A stretch of DNA of 63,451 nucleotides, filler included, from Rhizaria sp. SCN 62-66 (taxonomy: Eukaryota), in the NCBI GenBank assembly GCA_001724265.1. It is 2 parts of 2 records of this genome, joined end to end, with 100 filler letters (N's around TTAATTAATTAA, not from the genome) between each part and the next. Parts side by side here need not be neighbours in the genome. Positions count along the whole stretch, not along the records: positions 31,789 to 63,451 come from MEDY01000354.1; 1 more part is not named here. One strand, 5' to 3'. Each line of letters opens with the position of its first letter. Positions within the stretch are counted from its first letter, which is position 1. The position numbers and the translations under genes are program-made. Positions 35,290 through 46,905 of this stretch are shown in pieces. Under the pieces are notes generated by a model. It was not told where the DNA came from and made no database searches. It worked only from the letters and a program-made list of their open reading frames with translations.

Positions 35290-35550
35290 TCACTCGTCGT
35301 ACTCTTGCGCCTCGCGCTCGCGCTTCTTGCGCTCCCACTCGATGCGGTGCGCGGCACGCGTCCTGTTCTCACTCTCTTTCTGGCAGCACACCTTGTACAG
35401 GTTCGCCTCCTCGCCGCAGTCGTCGACGTGCGAGAGCCCGCGCTTAGAGTTTACGCAGGCAAGGTAGCGCTAAAGAAGCTCGTCGCAGCTAGGCAGCGCG
35501 GGCGTCGATGTGGGGGCGCCAGCGGGCGGCGCGGCCGGGGCGGAAGACAT
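35290..35550 (-). CDS. Small twin-CX9C (CHCH-type) protein, 86 aa, with an in-frame TAG at codon 27 (35472-35470)
   Basis: Not in the ORF track. The translation is MSSAPAAPPAGAPTSTPALPS-CDELL*RYLAC-VNSKRGLSHVDD-CGEEANLYKVC-CQKESENRTRAAHRIEWERKKREREAQEYDE, ending in TGA. Both Cys pairs have exact CX9C spacing only if TAG counts as a residue. Confidence 0.8.
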
Positions 35551-36016
35551 GGCGAGCTACAAGAGGTTCGTTGGGGAGCAATGAAAGAAAGGAAAGAGCG
35601 AACTGTGAGATACAAACGTAACCATCGACTGACTAATTATGATGAAAGGTTTATGTTTATCATTCCTAATAGAAATCCAAGGTAGCTTCTTATTTGACGG
35701 TCATTGCGTTGTGTTTGGTTTGATTGAAGTGAGGGTAGATGCGCAACTGGTCGACCGAGCCGAGCGGCCGCGCCTCCGGCGAGCAGTCGCGACAGTATTT
35801 TCAAGTTGCACAGCGAGCTATCCTGACCGTCAATAATGATATTACTTTCATTGGTGTGTTTATACGAGTTGCATTGAGAACTTTTTCAAATTAAATGGCG
35901 ATATATCACAGCCTAGGCACTGGGTGGACCTTGCTCCACAAGTATCCCTCTTTCAAGTACTGCGCTCACCCTCACCTTGATCGCCAGCACTTCTTCGCGC
36001 GTCATATAGATCTCTC

Positions 36017-42000: not shown

Positions 42001-45000
42001 TCCCGACCTTGACAGTGATCCCAAGACTAGCAGCTGCACTTGTACATGTCAGTGCGTGTGCGCATCAACGCTTAGCACTGCGCTGGCGTTTGCCCGCGCC
42101 CTCACGTACACGCCTGTTGATGCCGCAACTCAAGAAATCTCAGCGACCCCTGCAATGCTGGCGAGTGCTGCTCTCTTGTCCGCTGCTCAAGCCAATGCGA
42201 CTGCCACGGCTGCGACGAGTGCGCCGAAGAGCGGTTTGACTTTCAGCCTTGACCCTGACACTTGGGCCGCGCTCGTAGGCGCCCGGTCGCGGCTGCGGCG
42301 CCTGCGGCTGTCGGCGGCGGCCACGTACGCCGCCGTGGGGTACCCGAGTCCGCTGGACTTGAAGGACTGGGGTGATGCGGCTGTAGACACGACAAGCTTG
42401 CAGTTAGACGACTCGGCCCGGGTGCAGACACAGCCGCAAGCACAGTCTCAGCCGCAGTCTCAGACACAGCAAGCGTGTGGTGCGTTCTCATTGACACGGG
42501 TCCAGCTGCATGCGCAGGCGAACGCGCAGACGCAGGCTCAGTTGCTCCAGTCGCTCGAAATGATGCGTTCGCCTCGGCCTCCGACGCCTTCTCACTCGCA
42601 GGAACGAGTTGACGAAGACGTGACAATGAGCGCGGCTGAGGCGGCGAGTGCGTTAATGATGGATGGCAGAGGCAATTTTCTGAACAATAACAATAACAAC
42701 GCTGTGAGCTGTGCTGGCGATGATGCAGACATGGTTGCAGCAACAGCTGTACTTATGACTGACACTGTTCTGCTTACACCGCCGCAGCACGGCTTGGCAC
42801 CGGCACCACCGCCAGCGCCAGCGCCAGCACTGGACTCTGCTCGTAACACGCCCGGCGCGCGTGTATCCGTGCCCGTGGTGCTGCCAGCCCACACGGCGCC
42901 CACGATTCCGCGTCGTTTGCCCTTGAGTGCACTTTCGCATCGCCCCGCGCCGGCACAGGTGTTAACATCTCCGGCGAAACTAGGACTTGCATCGCCGTCG
43001 ATTACCTCGCCTGTATCAGCCGGCGTCGCGTCAGCAGGGCCCGCGGACGGTAACAGCGCTGCGACAGTCGCGGCACCTATGACAGCGACTGGCGACGGAA
43101 GCCAGTATTGGGGTGCTGCGGGCTCGACAGTGCCTGGCGCTCTGTACAGGAAGAAATCACAGCGCTCCAGCTTGACTGCATTAGCTGCAAATCCACCACA
43201 GGTGTCGACTGCAACTTCTGCAACAGCCACGGGTAGTACGACTGCTGGTGAGCGCGATCCTGGGAGCGCTCTGGCATCGGTCCTGGCGTTTTCAACTCAC
43301 GCTGACACAACAGCAGTGTACGCAAACAAAGCTGATGAAACACAGAAGCATCAGCAACAACAACAACAGTCTAAGCAAGCTGGCTGGTTATCCTCATCAT
43401 CCTCATCCTCCACAACGTCATCATCATCATCGGCGTCCTCCGTATTGCTGTCTCTGTCGTCACCGCTATCCTTGTTGCTCTCCGGTACAGCAGCTGCGGC
43501 CGGCCAGTCGTTCTCCGCCTCCGTTGCAGCCGCCACGGGCTACACCTCTCTGGCTGCGGCCGAGGTTGGTGTGCGTGTCCCAGCGTTTCAGTCGGGCTCA
43601 GAGCGCGTGTTAGCCCAGCCGGGCTTCGTGTCCGCCATTCCCGCAGCCCCACTCTCGGGCTCTGGCAGCTCAGGGCCAGCCACCGACACCGCTCATTTGT
43701 CCCATTCCACGGCTCGCGGCGTCGAGAGCAGCGTGGTGGTGGACGGCGTCAGCCGCATTGCGTGGGGCGTGGCGACGGGAGACTCGATCGCCAAGTTGCG
43801 CGCAGCGGCAGCGCTTGCTGTTGCCACGCAAGACCAAGTACGTGCGCAAAGTCATTCTGCTCGCGCGCAATCTTCTAGCGATGCCGACACGAACGACACA
43901 ACGAACGCGAATACCTCTCACCAAGACTCGGTGGTGTGCATCGATGACGTGTCCACAGCCGCGCCCCGCGCCTTCGCGTCCGGAGGTGTCTGGTCGGGTG
44001 TTGCTTCGGCCACCAACGCGGCGCAGACTGGCCGTCGCAAACACGGTGCCGATGGTAGTAGTGGCGGCAGCGGCGAGGGCGGTGATGCGGAGACCGACAA
44101 ACGCGCCCTCGTGGCTGCGGCAACTGAGCTCGCGCTTGATTGCAGCAACGATCGTGCTCCGCAGCAACAGCTCTCGGCAGCTGCAGCGCTCTCCGCGTTT
44201 GTCGGACGCGTGACTGCGCGAGCGAAGGCCAACGCTGCGGCTGAGGCTGCGGCGGCTGCAGCAGCCGGGGTTGGCTCGCTCGCGCGTGTGTCGACCAGTA
44301 CTGGCACTAGTGTGGGAAACAGCAGCACGAGCGCGGGGGCTCCAGCGCACAGCGACACAACTCTACTAACACGAGTGAATGTAAGTTGTGGAGACGAGAT
44401 TGTAAGTAGTCGTGGTCGTGTGTGGGAATACGGTTCGCACGACGACAACTTTGATGACGGCGATAACCTGTCTCAAATCAACACAAGTGCTGATCAAACA
44501 AGTGCTGTTGCGCCCAGCTCCCAGCCCTGGATTGTATCGCTGTCGCCCGCACAGCGCGATGCCGCAGAAGCCGCCGCCGCAGTTGCGGAAGCTGGTTTCA
44601 GTCTTGGCCTTGCTCTCAATCTCAACGGTGGCACTGCTCACAGCTACAGCGGCTCCACTGGCTTGAGCACAATTGCCAGTGCGGGCGAGCTCAGCAGTCT
44701 CGGGGTTGGCGGCACTGGCGGCGGCGGCATCGGCGTCGGCGTGCGGCTCGGAGCCGCGGCGCGCGGTGGGGCGCACGTGCCCGCGCGTGTCACGCGGCAC
44801 GCACTGCTAGAGGCGCGAGTGCTGGCGCAAATCGACTGTCGATTTGTGCTGTGCACTGCGCCTCTGGTCCCCGCGACTGCAGCTGTGATCACTGCGGCAA
44901 AGACGAACACTACAAGTGACACTGACGAAACAGATGATGATATGTCGACGACAGACGGTGGTAACAAGGGCGATTGTGAGCAGTGTGCGACTACACAGAG

Positions 45001-46905
45001 TGAGCGCGGTCACGATGCCTGTTGCCACAGTAAACACCGCTTCAATGATGACGATGATGATGATAATAATAATGATAATTGCTATGCTGGTGTTGACACT
45101 TGCGACGAGAGCCTTTCGACAACATGTAGTCGAAACTTAAGGAATAACGGTGACAATGATGATGACATACTGCTTTCTCGGTCGGCATCAGCTGCAACTG
45201 GATTGTTGACAGAGGAATCCACACAAGCAGTATCCACCTCAGCAACTGAAACAGCGCTATCGACACAAACACACGCGTCTACAGTGCGTCATACGAGTCA
45301 GCCTGCTGAGTCATATCCGACTGTGAATGTTGTTGGCAAGAAGAGCACTGTAGTAGCAGTGTCGAGACCCCCGCGCAAGGGTGTCATGGTGTTTATGCTC
45401 GATCAACACGCTGCAGACGAGCGCATTCAGGTGCGTTCACCTATTCATTTCTTGAAACTCGCGCTTAGAATGTGGTGTCACTTTATTTGCCTTTAATGTA
45501 TTGACATGTGTTGCAATATCTCACATATTATTTGTCTCCCTTGCTGTTCGTTTTGTTTGTCACACTATAGCTCGAGTACCTTGAGCAGAGGCTCCGTCGC
45601 TCTCTTACGGGCCTTGCCGCCCACCTCGCCCTTCTCTGGCTCTCTCCCTGTAGTGAAGCTGGTCTTGGTGGCGTTATGGAGCGCGTGGCTGGACTTGAGT
45701 CTCTTACTGCGCCCGCGTGTGTGCCCTCGTTTGTAGCGCGCTTATGGGATCCTGTGCCCGGCCGGTACGCGCGTCCACTGACTTTACCACCACTCATTCT
45801 TCCCTTTGCTCCCGATCACGGCAACAGTAGTAACGCATACATCGATGACAGGGAGAGTGACGAGCAGCGTGATTTGAGCGCAGTGTTATCCGGCCTCGCT
45901 ACCGCAGCAGCCGCCTTCGTCTCCGTCCCGTTCCTCCGCCTGCGCCGCCTGGGCATCCCCGTCGCGCTCACGGTCACCACGGCCGAGGCAGCCGTCGCCG
46001 AGCGGCACGCCGTCGCGCTCGCCGCCTGGGGCGTGCACTGGGCGTGGGGGCGCTTTGAGACTCGGACGCGGTCTAAATCACCTACGATCGATGCTGCAAG
46101 TGCTGCGCAAAGCAGTCATATGGGTGACTCTGACAATGATGACGCAGAGGAAAACGGCGTTATCACATGTCTGCATCAAGGTTCGCTTTACCGGATCCGC
46201 ATTGCCGCAGGCACAGATGACTGTGGAGACGACGATAACAACGGGAACACTGTGCTCACGCCCCTGTCGCAGTCGCAAGCGCAGTGCATGGTGATTCGCG
46301 CAGTGCCTTCGGTCTGTGGCGTCGCGTTGGAGCCCGCCCGCGACGTGCGCGAGATGCTCGCAGCGCTCGACGAACACTCGGGCGGCACAAGCTTCGTCTC
46401 AGTCTCAACCTCAACGTCAGCGACTCGTTTCACCGGGAATTGCCGCCACAGCACTGCTGTTGACTCCGACACCGAGGCTGAGTCAGATGTCGAGGCTCAA
46501 GCTGAAGCCGAGGCCGCGGGCTGCTTCGGCGTCACCGTCGCGCGGGCACTCACCGCCCTGCGCCGCTGTCCCGCTGGCCAGCTGACGGCCCGCGTCGCCG
46601 CGCTCGCCGACGCGCTCGCGACCACGGCGCTGCGCGTGCGTCCCCCCGCACTGCGGCGCGTGCTCAACTTTAAGGCGTGCCGCGGCGCGATCAAGTTCAA
46701 CGATCCCGTGCCGCTGCCGCGGCTGCGCGCCATGGTCGGCGAGCTCGCGCAGTGCCAGAATCCGTTCGCGTGCGCGCACGGGCGGCCGGCGGGGGCGCCG
46801 GTGGCGATTCTCAGCAACGTGATGTGGGAGGAGCAGGAGCATGATTCTGAGGAACAGTAGCGGTGGGGGCATTGTGGGGCGAACGGACATGTCAAACGAG
46901 AGTAA
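36017..46905 (+). CDS. MLH3: MutL homolog 3 (MutL-gamma subunit), greatly expanded (~3500 aa); exons 36017-37217, 37374-45430, 45571-46860/46905; in-frame TAG at 36887, 36899, 38537 and 46858
   Basis: GHKL motifs: VVQELVANALDAGA, VSDN|GIGM (phase-1 intron 37218-37373), RYHTSK, TLGYRGEALASI and HGTTVVLTALFASLPVRR. Transducer motif: YPAFFLYISPPPGTVDVLYDPSK. C-terminal domain: RVLAQIDCRFV, the endonuclease motif DQHAADERIQ|LE (phase-0 intron 45431-45570) and KACRGAIKFND...CQNPFACAHGRP. The gene ends at TAG 46858-46860, or at TAA 46903-46905 if TAG is a sense codon. Confidence 0.9.

Follow-up and report, generated by a model that had tools for sequence, protein, structure and literature searches.

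The stretch of DNA described here (the window) is a 63-kb eukaryotic metagenome sequence (63,451 nucleotides with filler, 62% GC overall) from the assembly named Rhizaria sp. SCN 62-66. It carries two neighbouring genes, a short Cmc1-like gene with twin CX9C motifs on the minus strand and a very long MutL-type gene, MLH3, on the plus strand, and TAG codons stand in the reading frames of both. The initial annotation had proposed from five such codons that this organism reads UAG as a sense codon, most likely for Gln, with UAA and UGA remaining stops. All five are present and in frame when the genes are translated. The parts of the locus are listed below, with lengths in nucleotides (nt) or amino acids (aa) and with TAG shown as an asterisk in translations:

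35550..35290, minus strand: Cmc1-like twin-CX9C gene of 86 codons, ATG at 35550-35548 and TGA at 35292-35290, recognised by translation and Pfam
35470..35472, minus strand: in-frame TAG, codon 27 of the Cmc1-like gene and fifth residue inside the first CX9C (CDELL*RYLAC)
36017..37217, plus strand: MLH3 exon 1, a low-complexity N-terminal extension and GHKL motif I (QELVANALDAG), with a presumed start ATG
36887..36889, plus strand: in-frame TAG, MLH3 codon 291 (HSQL*SLS*PRPQ), where the coding score is weak
36899..36901, plus strand: in-frame TAG, MLH3 codon 295, which could instead serve as a 3' splice site (tcactttcttag)
37218..37373, plus strand: MLH3 intron 1, 156 nt, GTACGC..TAG, 37% GC, the splicing of which restores DNG/IGMD
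37374..45430, plus strand: MLH3 exon 2, GHKL motifs III and IV with an insert of ~425 aa between them, a long disordered middle, and DQHAADERIQ
38537..38539, plus strand: in-frame TAG, MLH3 codon 789, in the Gln-rich run KQEQ*QQRD between GYRGEAL and GTTV..LPVRR
45431..45570, plus strand: MLH3 intron 2, 140 nt, GTGCGT..TAG
45571..46860, plus strand: MLH3 exon 3, the MutL C-terminal endonuclease domain up to the TAG at 46858, with FKACRGAIKF and CAHGRP
46858..46908, plus strand: TAG 46858 (MLH3 codon 3516), then 14 codons, then TAA-TGA (46903-46908)

The TAG of the Cmc1-like gene lies inside a conserved domain. Pfam family PF08583 (Cmc1) matches residues 15–76, spanning the TAG, and its score of 28.9 bits is above the cut-off of 22. 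The twin CX9C arrangement (C22-X9-C32 and C45-X9-C55) is obtained when the TAG is counted as one residue, as had been claimed for the first motif. The GC content at third codon positions (GC3) of this gene is 0.84, like that of expressed genes. Its sole close relative in a collection of 5.8 billion proteins, P0002, is 65% identical, shares with it one block of 15 identical residues, and aligns ungapped across the TAG (CDELL*RYLAC against CDPLLETYLRC), with Glu in the TAG column. Because of this gap-free alignment to a Glu, the Cmc1 TAG is, on sequence comparison, a codon within the CX9C helix rather than the end of an intron. When metagenome contigs were scanned with the Cmc1 alignment (A1), the 5 loci found all belonged to one distant organism of 36% GC, and the distant Cmc1-like homologues L001–L005, on AT-rich contigs, have Asp or Gln at the TAG column. 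Scans of genome contigs with A1 and with the window's own MLH3 protein (P0006) gave no match, nor did a scan of viral contigs with A1. The residue expected at the TAG would be polar, Glu, Asp or Gln. The original assignment is partly supported: the aligned Cmc1 site and the otherwise intact MLH3 favour a sense codon, and Gln itself is not singled out by a column that holds Glu, Asp or Gln.

In the distant, 36% GC organism, L003 (within 3326–3748) has TAA where L001 (4445–4894), L002 (766–1215) and L005 (2577–2822) carry CAA, at a position after the ATG and before the CX9C domain of the distant Cmc1-like gene. The difference could be a synonymous polymorphism under UAR = Gln, or a null allele.

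By its motifs the long gene is a MutL homologue of the MLH3 type, with those of the GHKL ATPase and of the C-terminal endonuclease both present. The C-terminal endonuclease of MutL proteins is marked by DQHA(X)2E(X)4E, ACR and C(P/N)HGRP. Seven motifs were read in the translation, QELVANALDAG, DNG/IGMD, GYRGEAL, GTTV, DQHAADERIQLE, FKACRGAIKF and CAHGRP, and all are intact. The best PDB match of the C-terminal part is yeast MLH3 (4.9e-10), well above PMS1 (0.02); the N-terminal part matches Mlh1 (4e-05) and MutL, and PMS1 is also among the PDB matches of exon 2. P0006 has a precomputed PF08676 assignment, and the Pfam matches of the split MLH3 pieces were all under the cut-offs. This MLH3 piece of the window is found on 4 contigs, of up to 127,977 nt. 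Across the exons (36017-37217/37374-45430/45571-46905) the only stops are TAG at codons 291, 295, 789 and 3516 and TAA at codon 3531. Within the ~3,530 codons there are three internal TAGs, and neither an internal TAA or TGA nor a frameshift.

Codon 789 is the sole interruption of the low-complexity insert of ~425 aa between GHKL motifs III and IV (window 37374-39000), which is otherwise open, in a protein of ~3,500 aa; public gene calls break MLH3 at this TAG (38537) into P0010 and P0011. A phmmer search with the 700 aa at the start of exon 2 (P0009) returned 47 ordinary MutL proteins besides the two proteins into which the window's own MLH3 is split. The ordinary proteins match query residues 61-104 and 529-581 at adjacent positions, and the insert is absent from all relatives found by this search. 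A homologue search with exon 1 (P0004) gave no match, its candidate list being saturated by low-complexity words. Within exon 1, a codon-usage score favours the MLH3 frame from ~36050 to 36800 and again from 36950, with a dip over 36650–37099. No ATG occurs between 36902 and 37217, that is, between the N-terminal TAGs and the start of the conserved ATPase, and no AT-rich spacer separates the upstream coding stretch from the ATPase part. With the upstream coding score, these two absences mean that a functional MLH3 either passes the TAGs, at least two of them if it is made from an AUG, or splices them out.

Runs from bioreactors, wastewater and activated sludge, which belong to several studies of 2015–2025, contain the sequence of the window, and their contigs bear on whether the TAGs are real. 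DNA contigs from another study (X3) show 0 differences at 35470-72, 38537-39 and 46858-60, the Cmc1 TAG being in the contig over 34761-36142. DNA contigs of X4 give additional, identical cover at 38537, and X7 covers 46858. Base-calling or assembly error, a concern raised at the outset, is excluded at these 3 of the 5 sites by their identity in another study's DNA contigs, and no listed piece extends over the remaining two, 36887 and 36899, in a stretch flagged as repeat. In X6, a metatranscriptome of polyadenylated (polyA) RNA, a contig begins 16 nt before 38537 and includes the TAG. Some depth is also present for X6 in the bin around the Cmc1 gene, where no listed piece shows the TAG itself to be covered, and X6 has no cover over 34656-35219 or 35784-36347. 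No splice joints were seen in the contigs of four runs.

TAG is also missing from the gene ends. Besides MLH3, 15 gene ends in the window comprise 7 TGA, 8 TAA and 0 TAG; for two of these ends, 16405 and 25607, the gene is uncertain, and the tally does not include the gene at 27703-30000. The earlier figures were 8 TGA and 6 TAA, and the absence of TAG that went with them is upheld. If TAG is assumed to make up 20–25% of stops, the probability of 0 in 15 is ~0.01–0.04. The base after the terminator is G in 10 of the 15, and TAA makes up 8 of the 15 stops despite the dominance of G-ending sense codons.

That the TAGs are real DNA, that the one in Cmc1 stands at an aligned codon of a conserved domain, and that none of 15 genes ends in TAG argue for a sense UAG. 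The reading favoured here, with a probability of about 0.5, is that UAG is a translated but very rare codon, most likely for Gln and possibly for Glu, with 4 internal cases in ~14,700 codons or ~0.3 per 1,000, and that UAA and UGA terminate. Under this reading UAG would be decoded by a tRNA with the anticodon CUA, or by strong suppression through tRNA-Gln; eRF1 would read UAG poorly; and the same pattern would be found genome-wide. ARAGORN found 0 tRNA genes across the window, Rfam families had 0 matches across it, and no eRF1 gene lies in it. A more specific form of the sense reading, which is rather unlikely, is an early stop-codon capture in a free-living, GC-rich non-ciliate, in which UAG has gone as a terminator and is reappearing as a rare sense codon. 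In that event the earliest sense UAGs would stand where constraint or expression is weak, and there may be residual termination, with a dual meaning at the end of MLH3.

The end of MLH3 had been counted as a further sense site, and it gives no evidence of one. The MLH3 of a relative (P0007) ends ~5-6 residues before TAG 46858, the solved yeast MLH3 chain ends ~15 residues before it, and the tail after it has no conservation. Because homologues end earlier, TAG 46858 would most simply be an ordinary MLH3 stop followed by 3' untranslated sequence; alternatively, it may be a sense TAG followed by the tandem stop TAA-TGA. With a plain TAG terminator here, it could no longer be said that no gene ends in TAG.

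A TAG terminator at 46858 would thus be one point against a sense UAG, and there are several others. Such a reading needs a rare code change together with a very uneven and very sparse use of the codon. The 12 other open reading frame (ORF) segments of the window, 11,112 codons in all, have 107 CAA, 501 CAG and 0 TAG, whereas MLH3 and Cmc1 together, 3,618 codons, have 61 CAA, 108 CAG and 4 internal TAG; at the TAG:CAA ratio of MLH3, ~7 TAGs would be expected in the other segments. The caveat of the initial annotation that the sites are concentrated in two neighbouring genes is therefore confirmed. The density of TAG is also far under that of the published UAG-sense cases (PMC5304391). All three internal TAGs of MLH3 are in low-complexity sequence, which leaves Cmc1 as the only conserved, aligned site. 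The only polyA-RNA contig at intron 1 (X6, 37175-37480) is unspliced; since it retains the intron it represents pre-mRNA, DNA carry-over or intron retention. The recurrence of the TAGs in other runs is itself of two sides: with 0-5 differences over 16.9 kb, the runs of 2015–2025 are nearly clonal, and recurrence across near-clonal samples excludes error but does not speak against a fixed null allele. Between X4 and the window there are only 5 single nucleotide polymorphisms (SNPs) over 32400-49300 (40552, 42794, 42981, 43709 and 44354), all in MLH3 exon 2. Of these, 4 are nonsynonymous and 1 is synonymous, and all lie in disordered stretches, which fits relaxed constraint.

These points lend themselves to an explanation within the standard code, in which the TAGs are nonsense codons: MLH3, which acts in meiotic crossover, is decaying in a clonally spreading lineage, Cmc1 is a null allele (fixed or haplotype-specific), and 46858 is the MLH3 stop. 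This is quite possible, if short of probable. It accounts for internal TAGs confined to two adjacent genes and none in the other 11,112 codons, for the 4 to 1 excess of nonsynonymous SNPs in MLH3, and for MLH3 homologues that end before 46858; the 0-5 differences over 16.9 kb across ten years suggest the clonality that it calls for, and the GC3 of MLH3 is under that of its neighbours (0.62–0.70 against 0.74–0.91). Nor does the identity of the stops count heavily against it. It had been noted that only TAG interrupts these genes, and this is so, MLH3 having no TAA, TGA or frameshift. From the codon content of MLH3 and Cmc1, however, a random nonsense mutation gives TAG with a probability of 0.48–0.55, about half the time, so that four TAGs out of four have a probability of ~0.05–0.09 and the lack of internal TAA and TGA carries little information. 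The explanation has costs of its own. It requires two independent inactivations side by side. MLH3 would have stayed open over ~3,530 codons with its catalytic motifs intact and taken three hits that are all TAG, the Cmc1-like gene shows good conservation apart from its TAG (65% identity, with the identical block of 15 residues) and has a high GC3, and the lack of TAG among the 15 terminators is left to chance.

The initial annotation had also cautioned that each TAG could be a splice acceptor, and this was compared with the introns of the window. GC is 60–74% in exons and 27–43% in spacers and introns. Eight frame-consistent introns were predicted, of 126–278 nt and 30–37% GC, and two of them, once spliced, restore conserved MutL motifs. 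Their donors are GTAYGN in 7 of 8 and GTGCGT in 1 of 8, with G at +5 in all 8, and the acceptor is TAG in 6 of 8. On this basis the MLH3 TAGs might be removed under the standard code in GC-richer, in-frame introns, the Cmc1 TAG being a separate matter (a null allele or readthrough). The candidates, with lengths that are multiples of 3, are:

36746-36901, plus strand: candidate cryptic intron of 156 nt, the same length as intron 1
38324-38539 (216 nt) or 38450-38539 (90 nt), plus strand: candidate cryptic intron ending at the TAG of codon 789

The case is best at 36901, a credible 3' splice site with a pyrimidine tract and ACTCAC ~25 nt upstream, in line with the frequent TAG acceptors, and the coding score falls over 36650–37099. 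The only in-frame donor for it, GTGAAT at 36746, does not have the +5 G found in all of the predicted introns. For the acceptor at 38539, the donors GTGCGC and GTGCGG keep the +5 G and are off consensus at +6, and a GTG start is found in only 1 of the 8 predicted introns. GC is 48.7% over 36746-36901 and 63–70% around 38537, against 30–37% in the predicted introns. Codon 789 is not acceptor-like, because the 20 nt upstream of 38537 are purine-rich, without a pyrimidine tract; the frame moreover stays open across the ~425 codons of the MLH3 insert. A splice acceptor is thus plausible at 36901 and not at 38537 or in Cmc1, to which this explanation is inapplicable, and as a whole it is improbable.

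Repair at the level of RNA, either by restorative adenosine-to-inosine (A-to-I) editing of UAG to UGG (Trp), of the kind that filamentous ascomycetes use in their sexual stages, or by readthrough programmed by structure or context, would fit the observation that UAG alone is affected and that one of the genes is meiotic. C is a leaky +4 base for stop readthrough, and C follows 4 of the 5 TAGs (the bases are C, C, T, C, C). The same C is usual after the CAG codons of MLH3 and Cmc1, however, and a pyrimidine follows in 80 of 108 of them. The argument from the +4 base was dropped for this reason, as the pyrimidine after TAG mirrors the context of CAG codons; it fits an origin of TAG from CAG under a sense or a nonsense reading alike. 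No hairpins were found at the TAG sites folded (z +1.0, +1.1, +1.5 and -0.4) and no structure downstream (z -1.3 to +0.8), which leaves both structure-driven readthrough and A-to-I repair unsupported. The Cmc1 relatives show Glu, Asp or Gln and not Trp at the TAG column, and nothing marks the organism as an ascomycete. Repair of this kind is very improbable.

The remainder of the window contains the following recognisable genes:

GATase gene
DnaJ gene, split by an intron
NCBP3-like gene
cold-shock-domain protein gene
amino-acid permease gene with a huge tail
putative ABC transporter, 3' end only, identified by reading of the translation

By reading, the DnaJ looks mitochondrial. Two Atlas searches on the lineage matched clusters of bacterial DnaJ and permeases and no others. 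A multi-exon gene at 26400-30000 has the small-GTPase-like motifs LQIWDHPG and LLVCDVTS, also found by reading, and several GTACGT donors. An A6 run (16395-16400) lies where the ORF 15571..16407, with a TAA end, overlaps the ORF 16386..22130, and the overlap at 16386-16407 could be a frameshift, a homopolymer assembly slip or two abutting genes. Two runs of 44 N, at 31689-31732 and 31745-31788, fall within the minus-strand ORF 30657..31736 or at its 5' end.

The few documented nuclear reassignments of UAG alone come from Iotanema, from a sainouroid rhizarian and, among the ciliates, from some phyllopharyngeans and oligohymenophoreans. UAG is described as Gln, with UAA and UGA as stops, in Iotanema spirale (Fornicata; PMC5304391) and in two phyllopharyngean ciliates. 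Iotanema has 204 in-frame UAG, spread over 126 genes and often at conserved Gln sites (PMC5304391); with a second case, of 384 in 71 genes, published UAG-sense usage is 1.6-5 per gene (PMC5304391). If the sense reading holds, the organism of the window would resemble Iotanema as described there (PMC5304391) in that UAG alone is sense, and probably Gln, in that UAA and UGA terminate, and in that UAG is no evident terminator. It differs in having 4 UAG in 2 of ~17 genes, 1 of them at a conserved site, and in being GC-rich with mitochondrial-type genes (Cmc1, and DnaJ by reading).

With the rhizarian and ciliate UAG-only codes it would share the uncoupling of UAG from UAA and the retention of UAA as a stop. 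Those codes rest on hundreds of sites, and in two ciliate genomes on suppressor tRNA genes as well. Multi-gene DNA of 62% GC with introns of 126–278 nt is unlike typical ciliate macronuclear DNA, and the UAG = Leu of known cases finds no hint here at the one aligned site (Glu, Asp or Gln). Condylostoma, Blastocrithidia and the karyorelicts, with stop codons of dual stop and sense meaning (PMC5304391), would offer a likeness if 46858 is a real stop and the internal TAGs are read, the meaning of UAG then depending on its position. In those organisms sense stops are abundant, whereas here they are very rare and are UAG only. The restorative A-to-I editing of Fusarium and Neurospora likewise involves in-frame UAG in otherwise intact genes, some of them of the sexual cycle; it differs in its hairpin-loop context and its ancestral Trp, neither of which was found at the TAG sites folded or in the Cmc1 column. 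A literature search on wastewater eukaryotes with a reassigned stop codon listed none.

If UAG is a sense codon in this uncultured organism, it would be an independent UAG-only case that tests codon-capture against ambiguous-intermediate models. It would stand out by its lineage, GC-rich, aerobic, intron-poor and not a ciliate by the style of its genome, and by the extreme rarity of the codon. If the TAGs are instead null alleles, the locus would be an ordinary record of how a meiotic gene decays in a clonal lineage. Over ten years the organism has turned up repeatedly in samples from bioreactors and wastewater, and if its code differs, its annotation in metagenomes would be systematically wrong, as where the public calls are split at a TAG into P0010 and P0011.

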